Shown: positions 534-18,787 of the stretch, piece after piece | Layout: the number at the start of each line of letters is the position of its first letter | How positions within the stretch are numbered: position 1 is the stretch's first letter | Assembly (NCBI GenBank): GCA_963727625.1 | Contig: CAVSHR010000008.1 | Coordinates: forward strand, 96,001 to 160,000 | DNA length: 64,000 nt | Direction: 5' to 3' | Origin: an uncultured delta proteobacterium | Lineage (GTDB): Bacteria > Desulfobacterota > Binatia > UBA9968 | Position numbers and translations under genes: made by a program | Notes under the pieces: model-generated | Told to the model about the DNA's origin: nothing | Seen by the model: the letters and a program-made list of their open reading frames with translations, nothing else | Databases searched by the model: none

Positions 534-1748
534 TCAGCTTTTTTTCCCGGAGGTCTTCTTCGGTTTTGGTTTGAAGCTGGGGATGACACGGCGCATGAAC
601 TCATCAAACAGCGGCACAGTAAACGCCATGTCGCCATGCTCTGGACTGTAAATCATCCCCTTCTTGATGAGACTGGCACGCACTGGTCCTAGCGTCGTTA
701 TTTTAGCGCCGAGCGTTTCGGCGATGTCGCCGGTTCGGTATGGCCCCGCTCCAAGTTCAGCCATTGCGCGCAGATAGTCCTTTTCGCGTGGCGTAAGTCG
801 GTCAAAGCGAACTCGGAAAAAGTTTTGATCCAATCGGTCTTGGACAATGGTGCTGGCCTCGCGCGTGATTTTCAGAGTGATCGGCGTTGCCGGTGCATGA
901 TTCCACGCTTGATATCCCCATTCTTGAATGAAGTACGGATAGCCTTTGGTCAGGCGGACAATCTCTTTCAGTGCAGCGGCCTCAAACTCCACCCCTGCCA
1001 CCTTGACCGGGTCCTGCAATGCCTTGATTGCGTCGGGTTCCGACAATGCGCCGATGTCGGGGAAGTTAAAGAGCCGCTCGGCATATGATTTCGATTCGCC
1101 CGCCAGTCCGGGAAGTATCGGCAACCCCGCGCCAATCAGCACCAAGGGCAATTGGCGTTGCTGCATCCGATGCATCGCCATGATCAACGCGCTCAACTCC
1201 GCCGTTGTGAAATACTGAATTTCGTCAATCAGTATGGCCACCGCAACCTGCCGTTCTTCCGCCGCTTCAGCGACGGCGACAAACAGATTGGGCAAATCAA
1301 CTTCCAGATCCCCGCTGTCGGCTGTTCCTTTTTCCGGTTCGATGTCGAGGCTAAATTCAAGGTCGCCATAGGATACCTTGACCGCAGTGATAAAACTCTT
1401 CAGCACGCCAATACCCCGCCGCACCTTGTCGCCGGCAGCCTTGATCCGGTCTAATTCGAACAGCAGTCGACGCAGATGCGGCGCGAGCAGCGTCGCCAGC
1501 CGTTTGTCTTCGTGCGCCTCAATTAAGATCGTGCGATACCCCTCGGCTTGCGCTAGGCGCTCAATCTCAATAAGCAACACTGTCTTGCCAACCCCCCGCA
1601 GGCCGGTCAGAAGAATGCTTTTCTCCGGGCGTTTTATCTTGACTCGTCCGAGTAGAACCCTTGCCTGCTCCAGAACGCTGTCGCGGCCGGCCAGTTCTGG
1701 CGGCGGCGATCCCGCTCCCGGTGAAAATGGGTTCTTAATCCTGTCCAT
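534..1748 (-). CDS. AAA+ ATPase (AAA_16/ORC-Cdc6-like) with probable C-terminal winged helix
   Basis: NPFSPGAG...GRD N-terminus, Walker A GLRGVGKT, Walker B ILIDEIQ, GYPYFIQ motif; intact 404 aa. Confidence 0.85.
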   Translation of the reverse strand: MDRIKNPFSPGAGSPPPELAGRDSVLEQARVLLGRVKIKRPEKSILLTGLRGVGKTVLLIEIERLAQAEGYRTILIEAHEDKRLATLLAPHLRRLLFELDRIKAAGDKVRRGIGVLKSFITAVKVSYGDLEFSLDIEPEKGTADSGDLEVDLPNLFVAVAEAAEERQVAVAILIDEIQYFTTAELSALIMAMHRMQQRQLPLVLIGAGLPILPGLAGESKSYAERLFNFPDIGALSEPDAIKALQDPVKVAGVEFEAAALKEIVRLTKGYPYFIQEWGYQAWNHAPATPITLKITREASTIVQDRLDQNFFRVRFDRLTPREKDYLRAMAELGAGPYRTGDIAETLGAKITTLGPVRASLIKKGMIYSPEHGDMAFTVPLFDEFMRRVIPSFKPKPKKTSGKKS

Positions 1749-3066: not shown

Positions 3067-5558
3067 ACCGCTCCCATCTTTTTGAGGTGTTCGTCCACGC
3101 GGGCGGCGAGCGTCGCCACTTCATCGGTGAGCTGCGGCAGCGGGGTGGCGTAGCGTTCGGCGAGTTGGCGGATGCGGCCGGTGAGGGTTTGCGAGACGCG
3201 GTCCAGCTCGCCCTGCACGGCGGCGGCGAGCGTGGCCAGCCATTTGTCGTCCACCACGAGGGTCTTGATTTCGTCCTCGGTGAGCGTGGGGTATTTGGCG
3301 TCGAGCTTGGCTTCGAGGTCTTCCTGCGCGGCTTTGAGCCGGGCCTTGGCGTCGGCCTGCTGGTCGAGCAACGCGGCGTAGTCTTCGAGGGCCTGGCGTT
3401 CCTCGGCGTAGTCCGGGTCGCGGCCGATTTCCTTGAGGCGGGCCTTCACGGCTTTGGCGGTGATTTTCTGCTTCTCGCCCTCGCCTTCGATGACTTCCGC
3501 GAGCAGCCCTTCCTCGCCGCTTTGCTCCTCGCGCTTTTCGTCGAGCTGCTGCTCGATGCCGGCGAGTTCGGCTTCGAGGGCGGCGATGGCATCCCGCTCG
3601 GCGGCGAAATAGCGGGCGATGAGAATGGCGGCGGGGACGAGGTCGGACTTGAAGCGGCGCTTGCCCTTCTTGAAGTCTTCCTTCTCGGGCCAGACGAGTT
3701 TGCTTTCCTTGTTTTTGACCTGACGGATTTCGCGGGGCTGCGCGCCCGCCTTCCACCCGGCATCGGCGATGAGGTAGCAATCGTCCTGCATGGTCTCGGC
3801 CCAGTAGTCCATGAGGTGCTGATAGACATCGTAGGCGTCGAGCAGCGGCGCGGTCTTGAAGGTGGCGAGCAGGTCCTCGGCGATGGTTTCGATGAGCGGC
3901 TTGGGATGGCCGTCCTGGGCGAAGCCTTTGAGCTGCGGCGTGCTGGCCTTTTTCCATTTGGTGAAGAGCTTGGTGGCGGACTCGTTGAAGGCGGTGAACT
4001 CGGCGTGGCCGAAGATGGCGGGCTTCACTTCGGCGATGGGGAGCTTCAGCTGCAGAGTAGCCGGGGCGGTTAGCGTTCTTGAACAAGGCGGCGCGCATGC
4101 CGGGCATGATTTTCCAGTAGTTGCCGAGGGCATCGAGGTCGCGCTCGGGGATGCCGCCGCGCAGGTGGCCGTCGATGTCCTGCAAGTCCTCCGGCTCGGT
4201 GCTGTCGATGTAGCGCGGGAGGTTGAGGTTGTAGTCGTTCTTCGGGTCGGCGATTTCCTCGACGGGCACCATGCGGGCGTAGCGCGGGTCGCTTTCATCC
4301 TGCCGGGTGAAGGTGTCCACGATCTTGTGGATGTCCTGCTCGCGGAGGCGGTTCTTCGGGCCGTCCTTCTTGAAGCCCTTGGAGGCATCAATCATGAAGA
4401 TGCCCTTGCGGGCGGTGGCGTTTTCCTTGTCGAGCACGACGATGCAGGCCGGGATGCCGGTGCCGTAAAAGAGATTGGCGGGCAGGCCGATGATGGCCTT
4501 GAGGTAGCCGCGAGCGGACGAGCTGCTGGCGGATGACGGCCTCGGCATTGCCCCGAAAGAGGACGCCGTGCGGCAGAATGCAGGCGCCTTTGCCCGTGCT
4601 CTTCAGCGAGCGGATGATGTGCAGGAGGTAGGCGTAGTCGCCCTGCTTCTTCGGCGGCACGCCCCAGTTGAAGCGCTGGAATTTGTCGCCTTTGCCGCTC
4701 TCGCCCAGGCTGAGGCCGGTGGACCAGCGTCTTGTCCGAGAAGGGCGGATTGGCGACGACGTAGTCGTAGGTGCGGAGCTGCTCGCCGTCCTTGAACTTG
4801 GGATCGAAGAGCGTGTTGCCCGAGAGCACGTTGGCCGTCGGGAAGTCGTGCAGGATCATGTTCATGCGGGCGAGACCGGCGGTGGTCACGTCCTTCTCCT
4901 GCCCTTCGAGGGTGATGTGCGTGCCGGCCTCGGCGGCGACCTTGAGCAAGCAGCGAACCAGAGCCGCAGGTGGGGTCGTAGGCGGTGGTGGCCGCTTTGG
5001 AGTTGGCCGGCGAGATGCCGATGGCCTTGGCCATGATGCGGCTGACTTCGGACGGGGTGTAGAACTGGCCCTTGCTCTTGCCGCTCTCGGTGGCGAAGTG
5101 CCGCATGAGATACTCGTAGGCATCGCCAAGGATGTCGTCGTTCTCGGCGCGGTTCTTCGAGAAATCGAGCGCGGGGTTCTCGAAGATGGCGATGAGGTTG
5201 GCGAGCTTCTCGACCATCTGCTGGCCCGTCGCCGAGCTTGGTCGGATCGTTGAAGTCGGGGAAGTCGCTACGGGCGAGGCGGGAGTTGGCGTCGATCAGC
5301 GGCTGGATGACCTGGGTGTTGATCTTGTTCGCCGATGTCGCTGTTGCCCTTGAGCGCGACCATGTCCTTGAAGCTCGCTCCCTTCGGAATGACGACCGGC
5401 GGAGCGAAGTCGTCGGAGTCGCCGTATTTGTCGGAGACATATTTGATGAACAGCATGAACAGGACGTAGTCCTTGTATTGGCTGGCATCCATGCCGCCGC
5501 GCAGTTCGTCGCAGGAGGCCCAGAGGGAGGAGTAGAGGTCGGATTTCTTGACGGCCAT
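3057..5558 (-). pseudogene. hsdM: Type I R-M N6-adenine methyltransferase subunit, frameshifted
   Basis: MAVKKSDLYSSLWASCDELRGGMDASQYKDY (ATG 5558), GQFYTP, YDPTCGSGSLL, VVANPPF, LPHGVLFRG and the C-terminus LKKMGAVWK are spread over several frames. Confidence 0.9.
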
Positions 5559-5779
5559 TGGCGCCTGAATTCCTTTGTTACAGTCTGCGGTTCGGGAAAC
5601 GGTGCCAGGACGGGTCAAAAATTCACGCACGGTAAAAATAGACTTTTTGGGAAGCGGGCCGCGTAAGTCCGGTTTAGTAGTTGGTTTGCCGATTTGGCTT
5701 TTCCGCCTTCCCCTACTATTTACTGTAACGTCCGGTATAATCCAAGGAGATTTGACCAGGATAATCGAGGAGGAAACGC

Positions 5780-6991
5780 ATGGCTCGACATTTCTCGACC
5801 AAAGACTTCTTCCGGCAGATTCCGAATGCGCTGCTCGCCCGCTATTTTCAAGCGCGGAGGGTGTTCTTGGATCTGGATTTCTCGGCGATGAAGGAGACCA
5901 GCCGGACGGGTTGTTCGACGGCGTGGTTGGCCCTGCCGGAGACCAGCGCCACGAGATGGACGCAGAGTTTCGCGAGATTTTCGAGCTGAGCTGTGAAAAG
6001 GGCTTCCGGGCGATCATTGACGAGGCGGAGTGGCATCTTGGCGACGATCCGGACGCCCGCCACGAGCTCATCGGCTCAGCTTTCGGCGCTATCCAATCAC
6101 TTCGAGCGGGCGATGGTCACTTTTCTGGACCACAATGAATACTGGAAGGGCGCGACGCTTTTCTATCACGCGGACACACTGCCCTATTGGCGCAAGCGCA
6201 AAAACTTTCCTCATGTCCCAGCAAATGTGGACGAGGCGAACCTCCAAGCACTGGCGGGGCTGATCCGCACCTATTTTCACCACACCGAAGGCCGGGGCAA
6301 TAACTGTGTGGTCGAGCCGTTCCGCCGTGGCGAGCTGGATTACTTCTTTGCTTACCCTGAGGACTATTCGCAGCATACCATCGAATGGGTCAACGGCGAG
6401 TTTGCCACCCGGCCGCACAACCCGGCGTTTGAAGTGATCTGCGTCTATTCGCAAAAAGACGGCACGCTCGACTTGAACTTTCGAGGGGCGAAGAAAGCCG
6501 TCGAACCGTTGCAGGGCATGTTCGCGACGGCGATCCTCAAGCTGCCGGGGCTTCCTGCCGACCCGAAGGACGACCGGGTGTACGACCTCAATCCGCTGCG
6601 CAACAAAAGTTTCGATTTCACCTGGGACCCGGCGAGCGGCATTGAGGAAGTGGCAGTGAAGAAGCTGCGGCTATCCTCCAAGATGACCAAAGGCGAGCGA
6701 ATCACCTTGGAGACCGATGCAATGAACGATCCGGGTTCGATCTACGACCTGCTGGAAAAGGTCAGTAAATCTAATCCGTTACACCTCTACAACGTGACGC
6801 AAGCGGAGATCGGCGCCTTGGTTGCCATGGATAATAAAAAACCGGCGAAATCGGTGACCATCCGAATCACGTTTCCAAACTCCTGTTCGCTCAAATACGA
6901 CGAGCTGGATTTGAAGCTTCGCGACATGCTGCACGCCTCCGGCATCGAACCGCGCGAGCCGGCAGAAGAAGAGAAAGCTTCAGACGAATGA
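5780..6991 (+). CDS. Conserved hypothetical island protein (about 400 aa once frameshifts near 5900-6075 are corrected)
   Basis: AGGAGG SD before ATG 5780 (MARHFSTKDFFRQIPNALLARYF); continues via EMDAEFREIFELSCEKGF and then the 5993-6991 ORF; its stop overlaps the next start (ATGA). Confidence 0.65.
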
Positions 6992-7776
6992 CGCCTGAGT
7001 CCGCTTTGATCGAGCTGCTTGTCCGTGTCGGTGCGCGGGACGGTGCGGCGGTTTTTGTCAGCGGCGAAGAACTGAGCCAGTGGCCGGTGCCTGCGGTCGC
7101 GGCCCTGAAATCGCAGAAGCTGCTCGTCAAGACGCGGCCGGCGAGAAGCGTGGTGTGTCCCGGCTGCGAGCGGGAGTGTGTCATGCCCGTGCATACGCTC
7201 CCCCGCGCCGGCAGCGCGGCGGTATCGTTCGTCGTGTGCGACAAACGCGACGACATCAATCGCGTGCCGGTTTCCGCTGAACGGCTGACGCAATGGCGGT
7301 GCGACGCTGAAGCTGTATGCGGGTTCATTACCAAGAGTCTCGGATTGCGCCGGAGCGAGCAGCATTCTACCGAGCTGGCGCTTTGGAACATCGGAATTGC
7401 CCGAGGCGAAAAGCGCAGCCAGATATTGACGCTCAGAGCGGATAGTGAGCTAAGCCTCGTTGCGGGCGACAAAGCCGTGCCGCTGGCGGAACTCGTTAGC
7501 TTCGGTGACGGCAGATATTCGGTTGACGCCTCGACGGCCCGCGAACTGGTGGACGCGGCGAGCACGGCGGACCCTCGCTACACGCCAAGCAACGCGAGGC
7601 GCGAAGCGCGGAAACTCGACACTCAGGCGATGTACGAGGAATGGCGGAAAGCGTACCGGCAACTGAAACGGCAACACCCCCATATGTCCGATGTATGGTA
7701 TTCGCGGCAAATTGCCAAGATGGATATTGCCACTCGCCGTAACTCGGACACGGTCCGAAAGCACATGAAGAAATAA
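6988..7776 (+). CDS. Hypothetical protein with a Cys cluster (CPGCERECVM...CDKR) and a possible C-terminal helix-turn-helix
   Basis: Intact 262-aa ORF coupled to the upstream gene; basic C-terminus SDVWYSRQIAKMDIATRRNSDTVRKHMKK. Confidence 0.7.
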   Translation: MTPESALIELLVRVGARDGAAVFVSGEELSQWPVPAVAALKSQKLLVKTRPARSVVCPGCERECVMPVHTLPRAGSAAVSFVVCDKRDDINRVPVSAERLTQWRCDAEAVCGFITKSLGLRRSEQHSTELALWNIGIARGEKRSQILTLRADSELSLVAGDKAVPLAELVSFGDGRYSVDASTARELVDAASTADPRYTPSNARREARKLDTQAMYEEWRKAYRQLKRQHPHMSDVWYSRQIAKMDIATRRNSDTVRKHMKK

Positions 7777-7781
7777 AAAAG
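7766..7781. repeat. 16-bp direct repeat, copy 1 (TGAAGAAATAAAAAAG)
   Basis: Identical to 9083-9098; overlaps the 3' end of the 6988-7776 gene. Confidence 0.9.
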
Positions 7782-7914
7782 ATTGAACTTGGGATAAGGC
7801 GAGAATAATCAACATCGAGTACCACGAGCGCTTCGGAAGCACGGCGCGAAATCCGACTTGCGATCTGCTTGGAGCAGTGACGGTGAATCGAAAACGCCAG
7901 AAAGAAGGAGTCCA

Positions 7915-8469
7915 TTGAGCCAAAGTACAACTAACGATCTGCTGATTCTGCGGGCCGTGCGTTTCGCAGCCGAGCGCCACCGTAACCAACGGAGAAAAGA
8001 CGAAGAAGCTTCGCCCTATATCAATCACCCGATCTCGGTTTCTTTATTGCTGGCCGACGTGGGGGGCATTACAGACCCCGAGATCCTGGCGGCGGCGATT
8101 CTTCACGACACCATCGAAGACACCCGCACCACGCCCGCCGAGTTGCAGGAAGCCTTCGGCGCCAGAGTCCGCGGTATTGTCGATGAGGTGACCGACGACA
8201 AGAGCCTCGCCAAAGAAGTACGCAAGCAGCTCCAGATCGAACATGCGCGCCATCTCTCGCCCGGCGCGGCGCTGATCAAACTGGGCGATAAGATTTCCAA
8301 CGTGCTCGACGTGGCCAACTCGCCACCGACCGGATGGAGTCTTGACCGGCGCAAGGAATATCTCGACTGGGCCGAGGCAGTGGTTCAGAGCTGTCCGAAA
8401 GTCAATTCAGAGCTGGAGAGCTACTTCGCGAGGGTTCTCGGAGAGTGCCGGCAAAAGCTCGACGTCTAG
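7915..8469 (+). CDS. Mesh1/SpoT-type HD-domain small alarmone ((p)ppGpp) hydrolase
   Basis: Motifs AAERHRNQRRK, PYINHP, AILHDTIEDT, EVTDDK, LIKLGDKISN; likely TTG start at 7915 after AAGGAG (ORF track starts at 7858). Confidence 0.85.
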   Translation: MSQSTTNDLLILRAVRFAAERHRNQRRKDEEASPYINHPISVSLLLADVGGITDPEILAAAILHDTIEDTRTTPAELQEAFGARVRGIVDEVTDDKSLAKEVRKQLQIEHARHLSPGAALIKLGDKISNVLDVANSPPTGWSLDRRKEYLDWAEAVVQSCPKVNSELESYFARVLGECRQKLDV

Positions 8470-8611
8470 GCGGCGGTCGCGGAACCCCCCCTTGACCGAG
8501 CTTGACTCTGGTCTAGCGGACGAAATAGGCTGCGGGTTAGAAGCGAAATCGGCCAACCGATATCTGTCGCCACCTGCGGTGGCTCGCAAGTTTTGAGTGA
8601 TTAGGTGCCAC

Positions 8612-9085
8612 TTGCCTACTGAGATCGAACGGAAATTTCTTGTTACGGGAACCGAGTGGCGCCAAGCCAACGGCGTTCGCTTTAGTCAGGGTTACTTGAA
8701 CCGGGATAAAGAGAGAACGGTCAGAGTCCGTTTGGCTGGGGAACAGGCCTTTCTTACCATCAAGGGCCTCACTACGGGAGCGTCACGGTCGGAGTTCGAA
8801 TACCAAATCCCGGTTGCCGACGCCGAGCAGTTATTGAAGTTATGTGACGGTCCAATCATTCAAAAGGTGAGATATTCAGTCGTTTACAAGGGCTTCAAGT
8901 GGGAAGTTGACGAGTTCTTGGGCGAAAATGCAGGGCTGGTAATTGCGGAAGTAGAACTAGAAAGTGAAGGCCAGCAATTCGACCGTCCAGTCTGGTTGGG
9001 GCGCGAAGTCTCTGATGATCCGCGCTACTTCAACTCGAATCTTGCTACAAACCCCTACAGTGCTTGGCGTGGACTTCCGGCTTGA
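8612..9085 (+). CDS. CYTH-domain protein (triphosphate tunnel metalloenzyme)
   Basis: Motifs EIERKFLV, QGYL, TVRVR, LTIKG, EFEY, WEVDEF, AEVEL, PRYFNSNL; likely TTG start at 8612. Confidence 0.9.
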   Translation: MPTEIERKFLVTGTEWRQANGVRFSQGYLNRDKERTVRVRLAGEQAFLTIKGLTTGASRSEFEYQIPVADAEQLLKLCDGPIIQKVRYSVVYKGFKWEVDEFLGENAGLVIAEVELESEGQQFDRPVWLGREVSDDPRYFNSNLATNPYSAWRGLPA

Positions 9086-9098
9086 AGAAATAAAAAAG
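9083..9098. repeat. 16-bp direct repeat, copy 2 (TGAAGAAATAAAAAAG)
   Basis: Identical to 7766-7781; supplies the TGA stop of the CYTH gene. Confidence 0.9.
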
Positions 9099-9141
9099 TT
9101 GGGCGGAATTTTTTCGCCCAATATCCCGCACACTATCCCGC
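9099..9141. promoter_or_regulatory. Inverted repeat TTGGGCG-N9-CGCCCAA followed by two TATCCCGC direct repeats (putative protein-binding site)
   Basis: Arms at 9099-9105 and 9115-9121; TATCCCGC at 9122-9129 and 9134-9141. Function is inferred. Confidence 0.45.
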
Positions 9142-9670
9142 TGTTTTCCTAGCGTTTCTTAGCCGATATTCGATCACACGCGGTGCTTTGGCGCCACTTC
9201 GCGCGCCGTCCAACCCGTTGACTCCACTGCTAGCCCAACTTTCTCAACTCGGATCGGAATGAAGTTTTTTAGCGGGTATGAAGGCGAAAAAGCTTCGTGA
9301 TTTCAAGGGGTGAGAGTTTCAAAGCGGCTGTAGTGTAGACCAAGTATCTTTTCAAGGGAAAGTTTTTGCGTACAATCAGACACCAAGATGTATTTACGCT
9401 GCAATCGGAGATTGAAGGACGGCAAAGAGCATTGCTATTGGAACATCGTCGAGAGTAAACGCTGCGCTGGGGGCAAGGTGGTGCAGCGCCAAGTGTTGTA
9501 TCTGGGCGAGCTCAACGACAGCCAGCACCAATCGTGGTACCGGGTGATTGAAGCCTTCGATGAGCAAAGCCAACAGCGCACGCAGCTGGCGTTATTCCCG
9601 GCGGAAAAGGAGTTGCCCGCGCACGCCGAGGGTTACGCAGTGCAGGTGCGTCTTGAGGCGATGGAGCTTA

Positions 9671-10766
9671 CTAAGGAGGCCACAATTTAGAGACTACGCA
9701 GCGGCGGCATAGCAGGTATCGGGTGCCTGAAAGAATGAGCGAACGATTTCAGGACTCTTTTGTAAGTATCGCAGTCTTCCCACCACAGCTCGATGCAAGT
9801 CACGCGGGCCGTGAACCAGGGTGCGACCCACGCCGTTGTTTTTCACATCATTCCAGACAAACTCGTCAGGGTTGAGTTCCGGTGAGTACGGAGGCAAAAA
9901 GAACAACTTTAGTTTTTCACTCAGTGAATCGACGTAGCTCCTCACGCTTTTGGAGCGATGAGAAGGATGACCATCCACGATTAGGAAAGCCGCACGTCGC
10001 CGGCCCTGCATTAACCGCTTAAGAAATTCTATGAACACCCGGGCACCCACGCCCCCGCGCACGACCATGAACCGCAGAGATCCCTTCGGGCTGATCGCCG
10101 AGATCATGTTCAGGCTAAAGCGCTGCCCGGTTACCCTGACCACAGGAGTCTTCCCCCTGGGGGCCCAAGTCGTCCCGCTATGGAAATCCGAACGAACCCC
10201 AGACTCATCCTCAAAAAATATCTCAGCACCTTCACGCTTCGCCATGGCACGAATTTTCGGATACTCCCTTTTGAGCCATTGCTCCACTAAGGACGGATTC
10301 TGCTGGTAAGCACGAAACAGCGGCTTCTGACAGGTCAGTCCTAACTGAGCCAGCAGTCTTCCAATCGAGCTCAGGCTCAACCGCATCCTAAACTTTCGAT
10401 AAACCACGGTCCTGATTTGGGAACGCGTCCACAGGGCGAAAGGAAGCTTCAATTGAAGCGGGTTTTTCATAGTCACCGTATTATAGATCCATTGGATTTG
10501 CCTGCCCGTAAGCCGTTTCGGTCGACCCGTACCCTTGCGGGCTCGAAGGGCGTCCCAGCCGCCCACCCGATAACTGGCTAGCCATACGAATATCCGATTC
10601 GCATATAGGCCCATCTCGCGCGCCACTACCGTAGGAGCTTGCCCTCCTTGTACGGCCTTGACCGCTTTGAATCTTATTTCTTCGAGCTTTGCATGGCTTA
10701 GCTTGCGTCCGTCGATATTCATCGATCGAACCATAACACATAGTTACTAAATTATGAACTGATTAG
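9671..10766 (-). mobile_element. IS630-family insertion sequence
   Basis: TA target duplication (9669-9670, 10767-10768); imperfect TIRs CTAAggaggcCAcAATTTAG and CTAAtcagttCAtAATTTAG. Confidence 0.9.
9694..10734 (-). CDS. IS630-family transposase
   Basis: HTH N-terminus, FFEDESG, IVDGHPSH, FLPPYSPELNPDE; intact (start may be ATG 10722). Confidence 0.92.
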   Translation of the reverse strand: MVRSMNIDGRKLSHAKLEEIRFKAVKAVQGGQAPTVVAREMGLYANRIFVWLASYRVGGWDALRARKGTGRPKRLTGRQIQWIYNTVTMKNPLQLKLPFALWTRSQIRTVVYRKFRMRLSLSSIGRLLAQLGLTCQKPLFRAYQQNPSLVEQWLKREYPKIRAMAKREGAEIFFEDESGVRSDFHSGTTWAPRGKTPVVRVTGQRFSLNMISAISPKGSLRFMVVRGGVGARVFIEFLKRLMQGRRRAAFLIVDGHPSHRSKSVRSYVDSLSEKLKLFFLPPYSPELNPDEFVWNDVKNNGVGRTLVHGPRDLHRAVVGRLRYLQKSPEIVRSFFQAPDTCYAAAA

Positions 10767-11900
10767 TAATCGGCCGCGCCAGTTTGGCGCGTGCTGGTTG
10801 GCTTGTCATCTCTACGAGCAGTTGGGCCTGGAGCAGTTCTGGAAGGATCGTTTGCCCGATAGTCGTGAGGGCACTTGTTGGCAGCATGTTGTTCAGACGT
10901 TGGTGTGTTACGGGCTGATTGATCCGGGCAGCGAGTGGCGATTGCACCGGCTGTGGTATGAGCAGAGCGCGATGGGCGATCTGTTGGGCGAGGACTTTGC
11001 GCTGGTGGAGAAAAATGCCCTATATCGCTGTCTGGACAAAGTGATCGAGCATAAGCAAGCCCTGTTTAGTCATCTCACCGAGCGCTGGCAGGATCTGTTT
11101 GGCGCCAAGTTCGATGTGCTGCTCTACGATCTGACCAGCACCTATTTTGAGTCCAGCCGACCCGATGACGAGAACGACAAGCGGCGCTACGGCTACAGCC
11201 GCGACAAGCGTTCGGACTGCGTCCAAGTGGTCATCGCATTGGTGGTGACACCGGACGGTTTTCCGTTGGCCTACGAAGTGCTGGCGGGCAACACCTCGGA
11301 GCGGACCACGCTTAAGGATTTTTTAACCAAGATTGAAACTCAGTACGGCAAAGCCCAACGCATCTGGGTGATGGATCGCGGTGTTCCCACCGAGAAAATC
11401 CTCACCGAGATGCGCCAGAGCGATCCGCCGGTGTATTATCTGGTGGGCACGCCCAAAGCGAGACTGAGTAAATTGGAACAAGAGCTAGTTGCGCTGCCCT
11501 GGCAAGCGGTGCGGTGCGGTGTCGAAGTGAAACTGTTAGCCCAGGAGCAAGAACTCTACGTGTTGGCCAAGAGTATCGATCGAGTCAACAAAGAACGCTC
11601 GATGCGCCAAAGGCAGCTCAGAGCGCTGTTCAAGCGGCTCAAAGAACTGCATGGGATGAAATTTAACAAAAGCCAAGCCTTGCTGCTCAAACTGGGAGCG
11701 GCCAAGGGAAAATATCGGGCGGCCTGGCGGCTGATTGACATCGTCCTACCTGAAGCCAAAAAACGCGCGGGCAAAATCGCTTTGGCGATTGTGTTGATGT
11801 TGACACTCGTGGGCCTAAAGGCGTAGATTATTCCCCAATCGAGCATTTAGCCAAGACTATAGCGTTATCGAGATTCGATTGGCGGAAGGTTAGCTTCGGT

Positions 11901-12665
11901 ATGTTTACGACTGCTTTTGATGCGGGTGGCAGTAAAGATGATCAGGATTTTATTGTCCTAGCTGGCTTCATAGCGCCGGCAGATGCCTGGATTGAATTTG
12001 ATCGTTACTGGCGCGATCGCTTAGCGCAAGAGGGATTAAACTACTTTCATATGGTGGATTTTGCTCAATTCGCGGGAGAATTCAAAGTCGGGTGGAGAGA
12101 TAACGAACCTCGTCGGCGAGCCTTGTTACGGAATCTGATAGAGCTTATTGAGCGCTATGCATCGCGGAAATTTGGTGCTGTCGTGCCGATTGAAGCTTTT
12201 AAACGTCAGTCTCCACCAGAGGGATGGGAAACGTATGACCTGTGTCCTTATTCGCTGGCGGCAATGCATACTGCGGCAAATGTGATGCGTTGGTGTATCC
12301 GCGACGGGTCGCCGCAATTCGAAAACATTAGCTTTATTTTTGAAGATGGTGATACGGGCGGCAAGGGGCGAGTCGAAAAGCAGTTTAAGGTTAACTTGGA
12401 TATGAGGCCTTTATTTAAACCTAAAAAGGATACACCGAACAACAAGACAGGCATGATAAAACCGATGTGGACTCCGCTTCATGCTGCTGATTTTTTGGCT
12501 TATGAAGTTTTTAAGTTTTGCAAAGAGTTTCAGGCTGGAAAACTTACGACCGAAAAATTACGATGGGGGTTGAAAGAATGTCAGAAAGCTCAGGGCGATA
12601 TAATGGTAATAGATGACAGCAATCTAGTCGAGGTTCGAATGCAAGCGCAACGTAGAAAACCGTGA
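11901..12665 (+). CDS. DUF3800-like protein (putative RNase H-fold nuclease), IS1595 passenger
   Basis: N-terminal AFDAGG...FIVLAGF, YFHMVDF, FIFEDG and C-terminal LHAADFLAY resemble the DUF3800 pattern (DESG...FH...LQxADxxA). Confidence 0.7.
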   Translation: MFTTAFDAGGSKDDQDFIVLAGFIAPADAWIEFDRYWRDRLAQEGLNYFHMVDFAQFAGEFKVGWRDNEPRRRALLRNLIELIERYASRKFGAVVPIEAFKRQSPPEGWETYDLCPYSLAAMHTAANVMRWCIRDGSPQFENISFIFEDGDTGGKGRVEKQFKVNLDMRPLFKPKKDTPNNKTGMIKPMWTPLHAADFLAYEVFKFCKEFQAGKLTTEKLRWGLKECQKAQGDIMVIDDSNLVEVRMQAQRRKP

Positions 12666-12691
12666 ACCTGCGGCTGTACAGAAAATCGCTA

Positions 12692-12841
12692 TCAAAGCAG
12701 TGTGTTGGCCAAGACAAAGGTCAATAGCCAGATGGCACCAAAGATAATCCAATATATCCGCTTCTGTTTGCCTTCGGACCCATACGCGGCCCAGGCGAAT
12801 GAAGAACTGAGAATAAATAGAGCGATGAAAAGATATTTCAC
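12692..12841 (-). CDS. Small two-helix membrane protein (49 aa)
   Basis: Hand translation from GTG 12841: MKYLFIALFILSSSFAWAAYGSEGKQKRIYWIIFGAIWLLTFVLANTLL*; starts 4 nt after the upstream stop; below the ORF-track cutoff. Confidence 0.5.
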   Translation of the reverse strand: MKYLFIALFILSSSFAWAAYGSEGKQKRIYWIIFGAIWLLTFVLANTLL

Positions 12842-12845
12842 CGAG

Positions 12846-13118
12846 CTACGCGCAAGGCTTCGTGATTCGGAAAAAGACTGCCTGACCAGATTCTTTTATT
12901 CGGCGGAATCCCTGAACGTAGTGGTCAATAGCGTACTTGATTTGGCTATCAAAATCAGTCGTGCAAAACGAGCATCTCAAGCCTTTGGTTTTCCAGTCCA
13001 CTTGTTGCAATTTCTCATTGGAAATATCCAAGGTTACTTCAGTGCCGCACTGCTTGCACTCAAGCGAGATATATCTCAAATCGTCGTAAGAGATGCGAAG
13101 TTGACGCTCTTCGGTCAT
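12846..13118 (-). CDS. Small zinc-ribbon protein (CKQC...CSFC), 90 aa
   Basis: Two CxxC pairs; start overlaps the upstream stop (ATGA). Confidence 0.65.
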   Translation of the reverse strand: MTEERQLRISYDDLRYISLECKQCGTEVTLDISNEKLQQVDWKTKGLRCSFCTTDFDSQIKYAIDHYVQGFRRIKESGQAVFFRITKPCA

Positions 13119-13255
13119 TTCCGTTTTTTCTTTGCAGGCGTAGGAGCAAGAGCGACTTTAACGGCCTTCTTAAACTTTCCCATGTCGGCGTTTTTGAGGG
13201 TCTCGCGGAGTCGGTCGTCTTCTTTTCTTGTAGCGGGAGTTATGGTGGTAGCCAC
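13115..13255 (-). CDS. Small basic protein (46 aa)
   Basis: Hand translation from GTG 13255: MATTITPATRKEDDRLRETLKNADMGKFKKAVKVALAPTPAKKKRK*; ATGA overlap with the Zn-ribbon gene supports coupling. Confidence 0.5.
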   Translation of the reverse strand: MATTITPATRKEDDRLRETLKNADMGKFKKAVKVALAPTPAKKKRK

Positions 13256-13287
13256 CCCGATACTTTAGCGCAGAGAGTCTTATATGT

Positions 13288-14187
13288 CTACTTGCTGCAC
13301 GTCGTTACGAGATCCTTAAAAGCGTCAGCGTTCTTTCGTTGATTGTGCCGCCAAGTAAATTCGTTGACGTACATAGGGAGATATTCTTTACTGACATGAT
13401 GAAACTGGCCCATAATTCCACGCTTCAAGAGCGACCAGAAAGAATCGATGCTCGCAGTGTGAACGAGGCCACGCACGTATTCATGGGCGCTGTGGTTTAC
13501 GGAATCGTGGGGATAATCTGGCCTCAAATCTTCGTATTGAGGCGCGTCATCGGTAGCAACGAGCGAAACTCTTTCGCTGACGGTGCTCCGAACGAAACGA
13601 TCAAGAGTTTTCTTGGTGGTATTCTCGACAACCTTGGCAACGACCATGCCTTTACGAGCGATAGCGCCGATCACGGCGACCTTGCCGGCAGGGCCACGCC
13701 CATCTTGCTTCTTGCTCCAGTGGCGATTCTTGTTTTTCCCGCCGACGTAGGTTTCATCAACTTCAACTTCGCCAGTGAGAGGCGGGGTGTAGGTAAGATC
13801 GCCGTGCATTGCCGCACGCCAGCGCATGCACATATACCAGCTAGTACGGTAGTCAGATCCAGAATCTTCACCAAAGATAACGCGATGAACCTGCAAGGCG
13901 CTGACTCCCTTCTTACCGACGAGCATCAAGTAGCCGACCTTAAACCAAAGTTTCAAAGGCTTCTTGGTATCTTGAAAGAACGTTCCGGTAAGAACCGAAA
14001 AGCGGTATCCGTTGCGACCGCCACAAGCTTTACAGACCCAGTTAAACGGGCGTGCTTTCAGCGTGTAGACCTTGGCGTTATCGCAACGTGGGCAATGCAC
14101 ACCTTTCGGCCAGCGCATCTCAACCAAAAAAAGGCGGCAAGACTCTTCGGTGGGAAATTGCTTGTCGAAGGCATCAATTGTTTTCAT
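13288..14187 (-). CDS. IS1595-family transposase
   Basis: N-terminal Zn ribbon (RWPKGVHCPRC...CKAC), VEVDETYVGG, ATDD, VNHS, SIDSFWSLLKRG, YVNEFTWRHN. Confidence 0.93.
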   Translation of the reverse strand: MKTIDAFDKQFPTEESCRLFLVEMRWPKGVHCPRCDNAKVYTLKARPFNWVCKACGGRNGYRFSVLTGTFFQDTKKPLKLWFKVGYLMLVGKKGVSALQVHRVIFGEDSGSDYRTSWYMCMRWRAAMHGDLTYTPPLTGEVEVDETYVGGKNKNRHWSKKQDGRGPAGKVAVIGAIARKGMVVAKVVENTTKKTLDRFVRSTVSERVSLVATDDAPQYEDLRPDYPHDSVNHSAHEYVRGLVHTASIDSFWSLLKRGIMGQFHHVSKEYLPMYVNEFTWRHNQRKNADAFKDLVTTCSK

Positions 14188-14923
14188 GCTCCAAAGGTAG
14201 CAAATTTATGAACGAGTGTCAACATCAACATAATCACCTTCGCTTTCTCGTTCCGGCTCAATCGGCAAAAGCTGAGAGAAGTACGCCGGCGCGAGGGCCG
14301 CTATCTATTACGGACCAATCTGACGGGCCGAGAGCCGGCGCAACTCTGGCAGTTCTACATCCAACTGGTCGAGATCGAAGCGACCTTCAAAAACTTAAAA
14401 GACGATCTGCAATTGCGGCCGATTTACCACCAGCTTCAACACCGCATCGAAGCGCATATCTTTGTCGCCTTTATGGCCTACTGCCTCAACGTTACGCTCA
14501 AGGCGCGCCTGCGGCCTGTGGCCGCTGGGCTGACCCCGCGCGCGGTGCTCGATAAGTTTGCCACCATGCAAATGTTGGACGTGAAGTTTCCCACCACTGA
14601 CGGGCGCATGTTGATCCTTAGCCGTTACACTGAGCCTGACACCGATCACAAACTTTTCTTAGAACAGCTCAAGCTCAGGATACCGCCCCAGCCGCCACCA
14701 CGAATCACCGCCCGTGGCCAACGCGTACACTGACGACAGAAAGCCCGATGTAGTGCAGACCTTTTGACTGTGCAGGTTGATTTTGTTGGCTTTTTAGATC
14801 GACTACCCTTCCAGTTGGGAAGGTTGGGCTAGACCACACGGGACGAAGCGCCGAGTCCAGATATTTCACCGCCCAAATCGCCCATCGACCGTCGCCATTA
14901 TCACGTTCCAAAGGAGTGTAACG

Positions 14924-15139
14924 ATGGCGCATACGATCTTGAGACTTCCCGAGGTAAAGCGAAGCACAGGGCTATCCCGCAGTACGATTTATCTCAAAAT
15001 CGCCCAGGACACATTTCCAAAGCCAATTCCCCTGGGGTCGCGGGCTGTGGGTTGGCTGGAAGCGGAGATCCAGGACTGGTTGCAGCGGCGCATCGACGCG
15101 AGCCGTAATAGTCGAGAGCAGCAAAGTCTCCGTAAATAG
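14924..15139 (+). CDS. alpA: AlpA-family regulator / recombination directionality factor
   Basis: ILRLPEVKRSTGLSRSTIY...FPKPIPLGSRAVGWLEAEI; AAGGAG SD. Confidence 0.92.
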   Translation: MAHTILRLPEVKRSTGLSRSTIYLKIAQDTFPKPIPLGSRAVGWLEAEIQDWLQRRIDASRNSREQQSLRK

Positions 15140-15165
15140 TGACTTTGGACAGGGAGCCGCGACCA

Positions 15166-16343
15166 ATGCAAACGCACAACCCAAGTAACGAACGGATCAA
15201 GCGACAGTATTTCGCTTACCTGAAGGAGGCCAAACGCCATAGTGAGGCAACCGTGGACGCAGTGGCTAAAGCTTTGGCTCGGTTCGAGGCCGACACCAAG
15301 TATCGCGACTTCAAGGCTTTCCATATGAGCAGGCGATCGCTTTCAAGAACCGCCTGGCGCAACAGGACAGTCAAGTTGACCGGCGAGAAATTGAGCAAGG
15401 CGACCTTGCACGCGACGCTTGCGGATTTGAAACGGTTCTTTCAATGGTTGGCCGGGCAGCCGGGCTACAAGTCCCGGCTGCAGATATTCGGACGCGGACT
15501 ATTTCAACTTGTCCGAGAAAGACACGCGAATCGCGACTGCACAGCGCGAAAAGAAATTCCCGACCTTGGAGCAGGTCAAGCATGTCATTGCAGCAATGCC
15601 GAGCAACTCCGAGATCGAGCGGCGCGATCGTGCGCTTATAGCTTTTACGCTACTGACCGGGGCGCGGGACAGTGCCATCGCATCGATGAAACTGAAGCAC
15701 GTCGATCTAGCGGCTGGATGCGTCTACCAAGACGCCCGCGAAGTGAACACCAAGTTCAGTAAAACCTTCACGACGTACTTTTTCCCCGTCGGCGACGAAA
15801 TTCGCCAAATCGTCGAGCGATTGGGTGAACTACCTGCGGCAAGAAAAGTTATGGGGTAATGACGACCCGCTGTTTCCGGCGACCCGGGTTGCAGTCGGCG
15901 TGGAGCGCCGATTCCGAGTGGTTGGTATAGAGCGCAAACATTGGAGCAGCGCGACGGCGATCCGTAAAATCTTTCGCGAAGCGTTTCAAACCGCCGGCCT
16001 GCCCTACTTCAATCCGCATAGCTTACGCAACACACTGGTCCAGCTCGGCGAGACTGTGTGCAAGACGCCCGAGGAGTTCAAAGCCTGGAGCCAGAATCTC
16101 GGCCACGAACAAGTGCTCACGACCTTTTGCAGTTATGGCCAGGTAGCGAGCGCGCGGCAGGCTGAGATCATGCGAGATGTCGCCAAGCCGAAGCGGGACG
16201 GAGCGAGCCGACGCTGCGGAATTTGCGAAAGCTGTAGCCCGGGAGTTGGCAGCGCAGAAGCGCGTCGGAATCAAAAAAACTATGAGCAGGGGCGTTGGTG
16301 CGGGGGCAACTTTGGGGGCAGCAGGGTAATTTCACTATTATAA
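15166..16343 (+). pseudogene. Tyrosine recombinase/integrase, frameshifted
   Basis: Pieces MQTHNPSNERIKRQY..., LLTGARDSAI (catalytic R), PHSLRN (HxxR) and NLGHEQVLTTFCSY lie in different frames; the true stop is 16329 or 16343. Confidence 0.85.
16302..16320. repeat. GGGGGCA direct repeats (16302-16308, 16314-16320), probable integrase arm-type sites
   Basis: Located about 60 bp before the att-like fragment, followed by an AT-rich spacer; role inferred. Confidence 0.5.
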
Positions 16344-16377
16344 ATTTATGTATTTTCAATGACTTATCGTGGAAAAG

Positions 16378-16397
16378 CGATTCCCTTCGGCCCACCA
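16378..16397 (+). other. att core: duplicated 3' end of a tRNA gene (CGATTCCCTTCGGCCCACCA)
   Basis: Half T-loop (CGATT), T/acceptor 3' strand and ACCA terminus, with no 5' tRNA half upstream; one base short of a canonical 3' half. Confidence 0.65.
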
Positions 16398-16464
16398 ATT
16401 TCACCTTCAGTTTTCCGCTATAAATATCTGAGTTAACGCTGGCCGCCTAGAGGCTGTTTGTCAA

Positions 16465-17136
16465 TTACTGGACCAAGTCGGAGCTGGTGACGGTGTTGAT
16501 AAACGCGCTCTCGCGCTTGGTATAGGCACGGTATTCATTGCCGAGGCGGTGATAGGGGTCTCGCGAGGTAATTTTCAGTATTTGCCCTTTCAGCTCGACA
16601 GCAATGCGCGCCTTGCCGGCGGGATCCTCAAGGCTGAATGTGCCGGCATTCTTGTTTAGGCCAGCCGCTTTGAAACCGACGGACTCACCGAGCGCCGCGA
16701 CCGTTTCTAACGGATCTTTGGCCGATATTTTTACTAGGTACCAATAGTCGTTGACAAACGGTTCCTCTTCAAAGAAGCGCGCGACCTCAATGGCTTTGAT
16801 GATTCCGGCCGCGTTGAAGGCAACACTCACGATCGCACGAGTGTTTGTCGGCACGACTCCCGCAGTGATCGGCAGGGCGCCTGGACCCTGTCGGCGATCG
16901 GAAATTTCAAACTGCCGGTCGGCAAATTGATAGATCCAGCGGTTACGATCGCCGCCGTGCTCGGCGCCGAAGATGCTCTCGACTTGGTTCTTGTCGGATT
17001 GTCCGATCCTGATTCTGGCGACTTTGTCCTCGACGGAAACTTGCGAAATGAATTCGGGCGATGAAGCGCAGCCATAAACAGCCAGGATCGCCACAATGGA
17101 TATTAGGAGATGTTCTTGCCGGTGCATGATCCGCAT
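16465..17136 (-). CDS. Putative lipoprotein with an SmpA/BamE-like N-terminal domain
   Basis: Hydrophobic stretch + VYGC lipobox; IRIGQSDKNQVESIFGA...WIY resembles SmpA/OmlA. Confidence 0.6.
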   Translation of the reverse strand: MRIMHRQEHLLISIVAILAVYGCASSPEFISQVSVEDKVARIRIGQSDKNQVESIFGAEHGGDRNRWIYQFADRQFEISDRRQGPGALPITAGVVPTNTRAIVSVAFNAAGIIKAIEVARFFEEEPFVNDYWYLVKISAKDPLETVAALGESVGFKAAGLNKNAGTFSLEDPAGKARIAVELKGQILKITSRDPYHRLGNEYRAYTKRESAFINTVTSSDLVQ

Positions 17137-17187
17137 CGCTAAGGAAGCCTTTTTGTCAATTTGCCGAGAACGTCGTTCGGTGGTTTG

Positions 17188-18471
17188 CTATTGTACCGTC
17201 GGCGCCGCGCCGAAATAGTTCTTCCAGGCCAGGGTCAAGAGATCGTTGGATAGCACCATGGGGCGATTCTCGTATTTGCACAGATCGACGCAACGGAGAA
17301 TCAAGTCACGCGGCTCGCAACCGCGCAGCGGGCGTTTATCCGCTTTATAGAGGCGAAAGGCAAAATCAAGATATTTGGGGTCATAGTCAAAGCCGCTTTG
17401 CCGGACGAATTGTTCGAAGATTTTCGCATACATATCACGATCCGGAGCGTTGACGTACAGACGGTAGCCCATGCGGCGTAAGAAAGCATCGTCCACCAGA
17501 TCACTGGGGTCGAGGTTGGTGGCAAAGATTAGCAGCTGCTCAAAGGGTACTTCGATCTTTTTGCCGGTATGCAGGGTGAGATAATCGATACGTCCTTCGA
17601 GAGGCACAATCCAGCGGTTGAGGAGGTCGTGGGGATCCACGCGCTGGCGGCCGAAATCGTCGATAACCAGTGTGCCGCCGTTGGATTTCATTTGAAACGG
17701 CGCCTCATAAAAGCGCACGGAGTTGCTGTAGATCAAGTCCATGGTCTCGATGGTCATTTCGCCGCCCACGATAACAACCGGCCGCTTGATCCTGATCCAG
17801 CGCTCGTCGTAGCGATCGATTCCGGTAACTGGAACCGGCTGATGGTTATGCAGGTCGAAAACTTTAATTACCTGGCTATCGACTTCGATAGCGTGGGGAA
17901 TCCAGATTTCGCCATGTTGAGCGCCGTGTAACGCCGTGGCGATGGTGGTCTTGCCGTTGCCGGAGGGGCCGGTCATGAACAGGCTGCGGCGCGAATTGGC
18001 GACGAGCCCGAGTGTCTGCACCGTGCTCTCGGGAAGCACCAGTCCTGACATGGCTAGGCGCACGTCCTCGGGTTGAATCGGTTCGCGCGCGGCGCTCTGG
18101 CGTAAGACCATCTCGTTATAAGCCGGCAAGGACACCGGCGCCGGACCGATGTAACCGTTCATATCAAGCAATTGTTGAGCGCGCTGCCAGCCGCGGTCGA
18201 GCATGCCGTAACGATTGTTGCCGTAGCTTATCAGGCCACGAATTTCAACGAATTTTTCGCGATAGAGATGCTGCAACAGTTCTTCGGTTACGGGCATCGC
18301 TAACCTGAGTTTTTCCGCTGCTCTTTCGGTGGTGCAATTAGCGTCGGCGTAAACGGTCTTCAGTGCCAGGTCGGCGAGAAAGCCGAAATCAAGTTGGGTG
18401 TTTTCAACTTTCAAGGGGATCGGTGGAACAAACATTGGCGCTGCAGATACGGTTGGCTCTGGTTTGCTCAT
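17188..18471 (-). CDS. Uncharacterised AAA-family ATPase
   Basis: Walker A GPSGNGKT, Walker B LVIDDFGRQ, FATNL...DAFLRR sensor/Arg-finger. Confidence 0.85.
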   Translation of the reverse strand: MSKPEPTVSAAPMFVPPIPLKVENTQLDFGFLADLALKTVYADANCTTERAAEKLRLAMPVTEELLQHLYREKFVEIRGLISYGNNRYGMLDRGWQRAQQLLDMNGYIGPAPVSLPAYNEMVLRQSAAREPIQPEDVRLAMSGLVLPESTVQTLGLVANSRRSLFMTGPSGNGKTTIATALHGAQHGEIWIPHAIEVDSQVIKVFDLHNHQPVPVTGIDRYDERWIRIKRPVVIVGGEMTIETMDLIYSNSVRFYEAPFQMKSNGGTLVIDDFGRQRVDPHDLLNRWIVPLEGRIDYLTLHTGKKIEVPFEQLLIFATNLDPSDLVDDAFLRRMGYRLYVNAPDRDMYAKIFEQFVRQSGFDYDPKYLDFAFRLYKADKRPLRGCEPRDLILRCVDLCKYENRPMVLSNDLLTLAWKNYFGAAPTVQ

Positions 18472-18736
18472 GATTCGCTAAAAACCTCCGATTTTACAGG
18501 ATCAGGACGGCATTTCGGCTACTGCTTGAAGCATGACCGCCTTGCCGACTCACAAGCCTTTATTTTAGGAGCTAACAGCCGCTTTAGCAATCAAAACCAG
18601 GGGTTTGAAGTGAATTTCCCGTTCCAGCTACCTGGAAGGCATGCTGGGGCACAAAAGGTGCCGTGGCGGTGCCTTTCCAGCGTGCGCCGATCCACCCCCC
18701 CTGATCTGAGCCGGTAGCGCCTGCAGTGGCCGCGCA

Positions 18737-18765: not shown

Positions 18766-18787
18766 TCGCTTGTTTAAGGGGAGTTCT

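Follow-up and report, generated by a model that had tools for sequence, protein, structure and literature searches.

Do two neighbouring genes that share a mobile insertion also share a function? This question is raised by a 1.3-kb segment in a 64,000-nucleotide stretch of DNA from an uncultured delta proteobacterium (Binatia, UBA9968; GenBank assembly GCA_963727625.1, contig CAVSHR010000008.1, positions 96,001 to 160,000), hereafter called the window. Between two copies of a perfect 16-bp direct repeat this segment carries a gene for a Mesh1-type small alarmone hydrolase (SAH) and a gene for a CYTH enzyme, and a preliminary description of the DNA had proposed that the two form an undescribed system for erasing nucleotide signals. 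We consider it reasonably probable that Mesh1 and CYTH are instead independent cargo genes with different histories, which were inserted in a recurrent slot of a decayed island and do not constitute a two-gene system.

The 16-mer TGAAGAAATAAAAAAG is indeed present in exact copies at 7766–7781 and 9083–9098, and no further copy was found in the window, even at two mismatches, or across the 6.62-Mb, 15-contig genome. The left copy, read on the forward strand, consists of the last codons of geneB, its TAA stop and then AAAAG; geneB (6988–7776, forward strand) encodes 262 amino acids with a Cys-rich motif, is the conserved partner of the preceding geneA, and provides with its 3' end the target of the insertion. 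The right copy, likewise on the forward strand, corresponds by alignment to relatives to the 3' end that geneB originally had in the island backbone, and its first three bases serve as the TGA stop of the CYTH gene. The HD_4 gene encoding Mesh1 (7915–8469) and the CYTH gene (8612–9085) are the only genes between the repeat copies and lie in the same orientation with a gap of 142 nt. Neither the list of open reading frames (ORFs) nor Pfam revealed a transposase ORF between the repeats, and none of 17 inverted pairs connects the two ends of the insert, which thus lacks terminal inverted repeats. Taken alone, the 16-bp repeat is not exceptional against the genome background. A whole-genome script returned 471 direct pairs of at least 16 nt at a spacing of 300–2000 nt, 110 of which are isolated (29 of exactly 16 nt), corresponding to about one per 64 kb, and contig C11 carries a 20/21 near-match to the right copy at an unrelated site. 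Such figures would suit a chance match of two A-rich gene ends in which no insertion ever took place, so that the repeat rises above chance only through comparative evidence, namely that relatives hold a single copy followed directly by a palindrome.

For this comparison, relatives were searched with the intact geneA protein (P0005) of the same-genus genome G008 as query, taking one genome per species. The search found 134 loci, from which the best 80 with 56–75% identity were kept, and all counts of geneA loci refer to these; their sources are Acidobacteriota, Beta- and Gammaproteobacteria, Nitrospiraceae, Binatia, Desulfobaccales and others. Of the 80 loci, 52 show the 3' end of geneB, and sequences with up to three mismatches were accepted as matches to the palindrome TTGGGCGGAATTTTTTCGCCCAA, which is located at 9099–9121 of the window and forms the conserved boundary between the cargo region and the core module of the island. 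In 32 of the 52 loci the geneB stop is followed by the palindrome within 0–8 nt, with one repeat copy and contiguous left and right flanks, which are empty sites of the kind that the preliminary description had proposed to look for in relatives. The palindrome lies 0.7–0.8 kb past the geneB stop in seven further loci and 3.7–4.5 kb past it in two, with L046 as a third of the latter kind in which the loop is inverted. This brings the total to 41 of 52 loci, or 42 if the inverted-loop copy is counted, while the remaining loci show no palindrome and mostly belong to a group of Vicinamibacterales in which the geneB C-terminus differs.

The junctions themselves are resolved to the base. As seen in alignment A1, the left junction of the window keeps the family consensus up to ...CACATGAAGAAATAAAAAAG (...ATGAAGAAATAAAAAAG) and diverges beyond it, and the right junction is unrelated to the consensus until TGAAGAAAT, from where it matches through the palindrome. 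In a blastn comparison of the window with its relatives, homology restarts precisely at 9083 in 14 loci; in L047 it extends to 9221, just before an insertion sequence (IS) at 9229. Together, the junction alignment and the restart at 9083 identify the 1301 bp at 7782–9082 (forward strand), absent from the 32 empty-site relatives, as an insertion between geneB and the palindrome with a 16-bp target duplication. The discrete 1.3-kb insertion without a transposase that had been postulated is thereby borne out. Despite the high genomic background, the empty sites rule out the chance repeat, and with the base-exact restart and a palindrome shifted by the exact length of the insert, we regard such a coincidence as hardly conceivable.

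The palindrome is unique in the source genome. An exact copy is found in 13 IMG/VR contigs, only one of which has geneA and geneB preceding it, which places the palindrome on the side of the core module. It was not detected at up to three mismatches in G008 or in G014, a second same-genus genome, the G008 contig ending 22 nt past its Mesh1 gene. By eye, no compensatory changes are apparent among the palindrome variants, and searches of Rfam yielded no family that reached the gathering score in three related loci, nor any at E ≤0.1 in window positions 5000–20000. As the half-site is moreover found repeated elsewhere in the island, these results point to a DNA site recognised by a protein and not to a structured RNA. 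In L046, at about 13477, the arms of the palindrome are kept and the loop is inverted (GAAAAATTC instead of GAATTTTTT), as if the element had flipped.

The short stretch that separates the geneB stop from the palindrome serves as a recurrent slot for cargo and is empty in most islands. Where it is filled in the relatives, it holds toxin–antitoxin pairs in seven loci and larger cargo in three. The pairs account for the inserts of 0.7–0.8 kb, lie on the opposite strand, and comprise a Gp49/HigB-like toxin with a helix-turn-helix (HTH) antitoxin in six loci and TumE with HVO_A0114 in one. The large inserts of 3.7–4.5 kb occur once each and encode a methylase with a Z1-domain ATPase, a Sortilin-like protein of 1049 amino acids, and a TPR-metallo-beta-lactamase with a radical SAM enzyme. 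Vestiges resembling the geneB 3' end stand directly before the palindrome in L047, in L070 and in the toxin–antitoxin group (...CCTGAAATAG, ...ACATGATTAACAAAG, ...CTGAAGAAATAATACAAAAG); they suggest that target duplication may be a general feature of inserts in the slot. In L113 (8182–8237), geneB is deleted down to its last approximately 30 nt and fused to the end of geneA, with the palindrome still next to it.

The first of the two inserted genes (7915–8469, forward strand) encodes 184 amino acids from a TTG start behind GAAGGAG, the start codon having been deduced from the G008 orthologue, and matches Pfam HD_4 at 2.1e-18. Its product aligns to human MESH1 (PDB 3nr1) with an E value of 4.9e-50 over residues 11–171, in agreement with the Mesh1-like HD hydrolase named in the preliminary description. 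Fly Mesh1 is also among the best solved relatives and, like the hydrolase domains of long RSH proteins, ranks far behind human MESH1. In the HMMER alignment the HD, ED and RRKD motifs are identical to those of 3nr1, and the protein possesses the HP, HD..ED and D..N residues that we take to be metal-binding or catalytic in Mesh1 proteins. HD_4 is its only domain, without a synthetase, TGS or ACT domain. By these alignments the protein is a true Mesh1 orthologue, that is a small alarmone hydrolase of the RSH superfamily. Like human MESH1/HDDC3 (3nr1, 5vxa) and the Xanthomonas enzyme XccSAH (PMC9765508), it is a single HD_4 protein of about 180 amino acids that lacks a synthetase domain; its alignment with the human protein runs from end to end, and it is an orphan as XccSAH is. 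It differs from these in being cargo of a mobile-island slot instead of residing at a stable chromosomal locus, and in being rare in its genus and phylum.

A small alarmone synthetase was not found in the genome, where PF04607 is confined to two long RSH genes on contigs C4 and C14, which makes Mesh1 an orphan SAH. Its neighbours are geneB and CYTH, and no adjacent synthetase toxin gene is present as it would be in a toxic small alarmone synthetase (toxSAS)–SAH pair. The resemblance to such pairs (FaRel/ATfaRel; PMC7229694) consists in the mobile location of the small alarmone hydrolase, within a slot that takes toxin–antitoxin pairs in other islands; unlike them, the window has no neighbouring alarmone synthetase, and the gene next to the hydrolase encodes a CYTH enzyme that is widespread by itself. 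According to passages of PMC9765508, orphan bacterial SAHs act alone as promiscuous alarmone and NADPH hydrolases, and the orphan XccSAH hydrolyses pppGpp, ppGpp, pGpp, pppApp and NADPH. The Mesh1 of the window would be expected to cleave the 3'-pyrophosphate from (p)ppGpp and (p)ppApp and, probably, the 2'/3'-phosphate from NADPH-type cofactors too.

Close relatives of this Mesh1 occur in two of 24 same-genus genomes (G008, 71% identity; G014, 61%), the genus counts taking in genome G005, which gave no match; overall, Mesh1 is present in three of 31 genomes of the genus and, across the phylum, in eight of 400 other genomes. The G014 gene is a solitary one flanked by gltX and an IS. The order in G008 is geneA, geneB, ORF126 and Mesh1, followed after 22 nt by the contig end. 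ORF126 (126 amino acids, L038 = G008:C4, 583–963, reverse strand) belongs to no known family, overlaps the Mesh1 start by 4 nt and has no counterpart in the window; in G008 it is a candidate for the partner of Mesh1. We also surveyed longer Mesh1-like proteins, comprising 120 proteins of 323 amino acids or more among the matches listed. Their fusion partners include MTHFR (PF02219), Zeta toxin (PF06414), DUF429, CARF-like (PF09651) and PARG-like (PF10021) domains as well as a type ISP restriction enzyme, which hints that Mesh1-like hydrolases may have been recruited into conflict or NADPH-linked systems. In a further locus, L123 (G281:C118, 1492–2490, reverse strand), a Mesh1-type HD_4 domain follows DUF488 in one stop-free frame of 333 amino acids.

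The second inserted gene (8612–9085, forward strand) encodes a single-domain CYTH protein, or triphosphate tunnel metalloenzyme, of 157 amino acids from a TTG at 8612 or 162 amino acids from a GTG at 8597, with a Pfam CYTH match at 4.5e-17. It is the sole CYTH gene of the genome. Among solved structures the protein matches only NeuTTM (2fbl, 3typ), at full length and an E value of about 1e-21, and the EXEXK motif is intact in the form of EIERKF at residues 9–14 of the 162-amino acid ORF, so that the CYTH identity given earlier also holds. NeuTTM (NE1496), the inorganic triphosphatase of Nitrosomonas europaea, shares with it a single CYTH domain of about 155 amino acids, the EIERKF motif and aligned basic and acidic tunnel residues. 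The similarity is however only moderate, the substrate class is not readable from the sequence, and the CYTH of the window takes its stop codon from a duplicated target. A passage of PMC8233210 describes CYTH members as triphosphatases, cyclases or RNA triphosphatases. For the present enzyme, hydrolysis of inorganic triphosphate or a related triphosphate would be expected.

The CYTH gene was found in none of 24 same-genus genomes; in the wider phylum, 41 of 400 other genomes carry it. In genomes of a sister family (g3), the NeuTTM-like CYTH gene has common upstream DNA at three loci, L027, L029 and L031. In L027 this gene has an upstream ORF resembling a flavin oxidoreductase, as named by eye, and an adjacent integrase, and neighbours at other g3 loci are Schlafen/AlbA_2 ATPases (L031, L035), a UvrD-like helicase (L030) and hsdM (L033). 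These surroundings suggest that g3 CYTH genes may often lie at island borders.

A conserved two-gene system would be expected to recur as adjacent or fused genes in other genomes, which is not what we observed. Neither Mesh1 nor CYTH occurs in any of the 80 geneA loci. No CYTH gene was detected near any of 80 metagenomic Mesh1 loci with 51–73% identity, of which 48 show at least 700 nt downstream and 52 as much upstream, one of the 80 being the G008 contig. CYTH is absent, by tblastn and by Pfam, within 1.5 kb of all eight same-phylum Mesh1 loci. Mesh1 in turn is missing within 1.5 kb of all 29 same-phylum CYTH loci and of the 11 g3 CYTH loci, and none of the 120 longer Mesh1-like proteins among the matches listed contains a CYTH domain. 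Both genes are present in one of the 400 phylum genomes, where they are located on different contigs. PADLOC-DB 2.0 held no family for Mesh1, CYTH, geneA, geneB or ORF126 at E ≤0.01. In literature searches directed at the genes we found no work that functionally links an SAH with a CYTH enzyme, although PMC6416229 mentions both, and none that places an SAH in a defence island beyond a phage genome paper, PMC12846349. As the pair is not conserved elsewhere (0/80, 0/8, 0/29, 0/11 and 0/120), the proposed signal-erasing two-gene system fails by the preliminary description's own yardstick, which had named the lack of such co-conservation as grounds for giving it up.

Whether both genes arrived together is a separate matter. 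That they were inserted as a unit had been suggested from the repeat; the discrete insertion stands, but its arrival as one unit is doubtful, given that G008 has Mesh1 without a detected CYTH and that the two genes differ in G+C content at third codon positions (GC3). GC3 amounts to 0.71 in geneA, 0.72 in geneB and 0.71 in Mesh1, and to 0.55 in CYTH, the genome median being 0.685; the CYTH value lies at the 6th percentile of the long ORFs of the genome. No CYTH was found in the 99%-complete G008 assembly. The left junctions of G008 and the window are unrelated, and geneB of the window is 55% identical to that of G008 and 70–71% identical to that of islands from other phyla, so that neither of the two islands is the closest relative of the other. 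The Mesh1 proteins of the two genomes appear as sisters with an SH-aLRT of 93, in a quick tree with sub-threshold support. Between the genes a weak terminator-like hairpin is found on the forward strand at 8575–8588, which is a consensus match only. We lean slightly towards an entry or exchange of Mesh1 at the slot within the genus with CYTH as a later addition, over a single event. Mesh1 would then be the older slot occupant in the genus and CYTH a compositionally foreign later arrival.

Several observations nevertheless weigh against independent cargo genes with separate histories. One perfect repeat pair brackets both genes and fits a one-step insertion at least as well as two steps, and no vestige of the repeat or palindrome lies between Mesh1 and CYTH, where local alignments of the spacers score within the range of shuffled sequences. 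The DNA beyond the end of the G008 contig, 22 nt past Mesh1, is out of view. The adjacency surveys cover relatives of about 45–75% identity with flanks of 1.5–4 kb, including many short metagenome contigs. The other occupants of the slot are toxin–antitoxin pairs and defence-like genes, so a conflict role of Mesh1–CYTH is possible by location, and Mesh1-like domains are elsewhere fused to Zeta-toxin, CARF-like (PF09651) and restriction-enzyme domains. Finally, the activities of the two enzymes are predicted from sequence, and the mechanism of the 16-bp duplication is likewise a proposal.

These points bear most directly on the view that Mesh1 and CYTH form one nucleotide-signal-erasing module, which would act on alarmones plus a triphosphate or cyclic product, serve anti-phage, counter-defence or addiction purposes and move as a unit. 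It would account for the single repeat pair around two genes in shared orientation only 142 nt apart, it has a parallel in the two-gene toxin–antitoxin pairs that use the same slot in seven related loci, and it would fit the fusion of Mesh1-like domains to conflict-type domains. Both ORFs are also intact, with geneA, hsdM and the integrase broken around them. This contrast, already pointed out in the preliminary description, is real in the sequence but weak as evidence, as the frameshifts are possibly consensus errors in the 15-contig assembly. On the other hand, the pair was found nowhere else, and each gene is common alone, CYTH in 41 and Mesh1 in eight of the 400 phylum genomes, so that CYTH cannot be a Mesh1-dependent toxin. 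In G008 Mesh1 is paired with a different gene, the GC3 values of the two genes lie 0.16 apart, and the terminator-like hairpin intervenes between them. We therefore consider such a module improbable, and Mesh1 and CYTH most likely act independently.

Another possibility is that Mesh1 alone is the selected cargo, as orphan immunity against (p)ppApp- or (p)ppGpp-producing toxins of competitors or incoming elements, with CYTH as a passenger. SAHs are described to give self-resistance to toxic alarmone synthetases in the portions of PMC9765508 and PMC7229694 that deal with them, and the genome encodes no cognate synthetase toxin. Mesh1 occupies the same slot in two islands of the genus despite their 55% geneB identity and unrelated left junctions, the sister relationship of the two proteins suggests gain or exchange at the slot more than once, and a third genus member carries Mesh1 elsewhere, beside an IS. 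However, toxin pressure would have to be presumed, orphan SAHs also serve general metabolism (as part of PMC9765508 reports), the tree is quick and its support below threshold, and only three of 31 genus genomes have the gene. Hence, we regard this explanation as rather unlikely, if less so than the module. Within the reading of independent cargo genes, Mesh1 may have been selected either for orphan protection from alarmone-synthetase toxins or for modulating the stringent response.

Concerning the mechanism, a 1.3-kb insert with two stand-alone hydrolase genes would have entered the slot between geneB and the palindrome, whereby 16 bp of the geneB 3' end would have been duplicated. Instead of transposition, we favour break repair or recombination, guided by the palindrome or by a protein bound to it, because unrelated cargo uses the identical base-exact site. 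Several established routes were examined and rejected. A transposon or insertion sequence is at odds with the missing transposase and terminal inverted repeats. Accretion at an att core or in tandem would leave a second copy of the geneB end or palindrome beyond the recombinase, and no such copy of at least 12 nt was found in 42 relatives. A sequential cassette array with internal sites was dismissed since both spacers score within shuffle range against the repeat and palindrome. An integron array does not fit a single palindrome that reads core then inverse core, with no copy between the genes and a frame-split recombinase 6 kb away. The slot nonetheless shares with integron cassettes the promoter-less small gene units, the one defined site beside a palindromic element and a tyrosine recombinase nearby, and GTTGGGC at the junction fits what we take to be the integron core consensus, GTTRRRY. 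It departs from them in the order of core and inverse core, which is the reverse of attC, in the lack of a palindrome after the first gene, in the 16-bp duplication, and in that most island sites are empty or hold a single insert. P4-like satellites and other hot spots of AlpA–primase–integrase islands offer a further comparison, with alpA, a primase-like gene and a tyrosine recombinase as core and variable defence cargo at a fixed position. Unlike these hot spots, the slot of the window is a second and far smaller one that is defined by the palindrome to the base, and its inserts duplicate the 3' end of the upstream gene.

We know of no description of such a palindrome-defined slot, our literature searches having been directed at the genes and not at the island family. 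It is conceivable, if speculative, that TTGGGCGGAATTTTTTCGCCCAA and the preceding A-rich gene end constitute a dedicated gene-capture site of a widespread undescribed island family, which would repeatedly take up short promoter-less cassettes with a geneB-end duplication of about 16–20 bp each. The palindrome, or a protein bound to its half-site, of which two copies stand before alpA, would guide the process. If this were true, the cassettes would include toxin–antitoxin pairs, Mesh1, CYTH and small defence genes, and the site would represent a new integron-like but mechanistically distinct way of cargo collection.

The genes flanking the slot on the left gave few functional clues. geneA (5780–6991, forward strand), which would encode about 403 amino acids when intact, was delimited by homology to the intact 447-amino acid ORF of G008, and its function is not assigned; in the window it is broken by an in-frame stop at 5987–5989 and local frame changes at about 5890–6090. 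In 74 of the 80 related loci geneB follows it directly. geneA has no Pfam, NCBIfam or PADLOC family and matches PHROG 37634, which has no assigned function, and geneB has no Pfam, NCBIfam, PADLOC or PHROG family. Profile searches of the PDB with either protein returned nothing under E 0.1, and Foldseek gave no match at E ≤0.001 for the two structural models. The geneA model (pLDDT 77) resembles RdgC and CENP-N at Foldseek E values of 2e-3 to 2e-2 (CENP-N 1.7e-3, RdgC 6e-3, RexA at rank 34), and the geneB model (pLDDT 90) shows weak winged-helix-like matches at its ends with a best Z of 6.1; these weak resemblances serve as leads only. Neighbours of the two proteins in a protein atlas are hypothetical proteins, GAPS4b_N appearing only at 0.78, and no geneA match was found in PLSDB plasmids.

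The surroundings identify the window as a decayed copy of a widespread integrative island family with a restriction-modification remnant, and the defence-island setting proposed beforehand is substantiated in this form. In the relatives, two direct half-site copies (ATCGCCCAAATCGCCCAA) lie about 200 nt past the palindrome and precede an HTH_17/AlpA gene and a tyrosine recombinase of about 370 amino acids, with a RepB-primase-like protein of 850–960 amino acids between AlpA and the recombinase in some of them, and variable restriction-modification, helicase or Cas9-like genes are located upstream of geneA. The tyrosine recombinase and AlpA-type regulator are present in the same order in the window. 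Here, the core-module parts lie 5.7 kb from the palindrome behind IS elements. They begin with the doubled half-site ACCGCCCAAATCGCCCAT (14868–14885, forward strand), which has two mismatches to the family consensus and stands just upstream of alpA (14924–15139, forward strand), a gene for an AlpA-family regulator or excisionase assigned by Pfam Phage_AlpA at 6.3e-22 and by tblastn to the AlpA of relatives. The island tyrosine recombinase of about 370 amino acids (15166–16343, forward strand) is split over three frames, as seen from the ORF list and from tblastn with integrases of three relatives, which yielded pieces at 15166–15597, 15452–15856 and 15780–16274. The type I methylase gene hsdM, on the reverse strand upstream of geneA, is island cargo that is split into three ORFs (3121–4548, 4603–5217 and 5268–6071) matching in succession the C-part of N6_Mtase, the N-part of N6_Mtase and HsdM_N in Pfam.

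Directly downstream of the insert, transposases of an IS4-like element (9229–11783, forward strand) and a nested IS630-like element (9671–10766) follow, recognised by Pfam DDE_3, HTH_33 and DDE_Tnp_1. The nested element sits inside the IS4-like transposase gene, and both together separate the palindrome from the remaining core module. An uninterrupted and 100% identical IS4-like copy is found at C4:965510–966966, and the genome contains no other copy of the IS630-like element. Two ORFs of 254 and 188 amino acids without a Pfam family (11901–13268) lie between the IS4-like element and an IS1595-like element and thus occupy what is the 200-nt spacer between palindrome and alpA in the relatives. 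A second isolated direct pair of the window, the 19-bp perfect repeat GAGGAGTTCCTGCATCATG at 313–331 and 1843–1861, is embedded in about 30 bp of imperfect similarity and brackets an AAA_16/STAND-like ATPase gene (534–1748, reverse strand); it may represent a further scar of insertion or the common ends of two paralogous genes. At 58982–60236 a tandem array comprises 3.8 copies of a 333-bp unit with 93% identity, which is probably a coding region for a repeat domain.

Mesh1 and CYTH are new members of known families and the palindrome-defined slot is a variation on the known theme of island hot spots, with the slot and its conserved palindrome being of more interest than the gene pair. For the pair, our results remove a false lead, as the proposed two-gene system is not supported. 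In its place, the locus documents to the base how small genes can enter a mobile island, at a slot defined by a palindrome conserved across phyla and with the duplicated target still recognisable at the junctions. Should the slot be an active capture site, it would offer a tractable model of cargo accretion in defence islands, and its occupants in other genomes would become candidate conflict genes. The locus further illustrates that a close relative of human MESH1 circulates as mobile cargo among bacteria.

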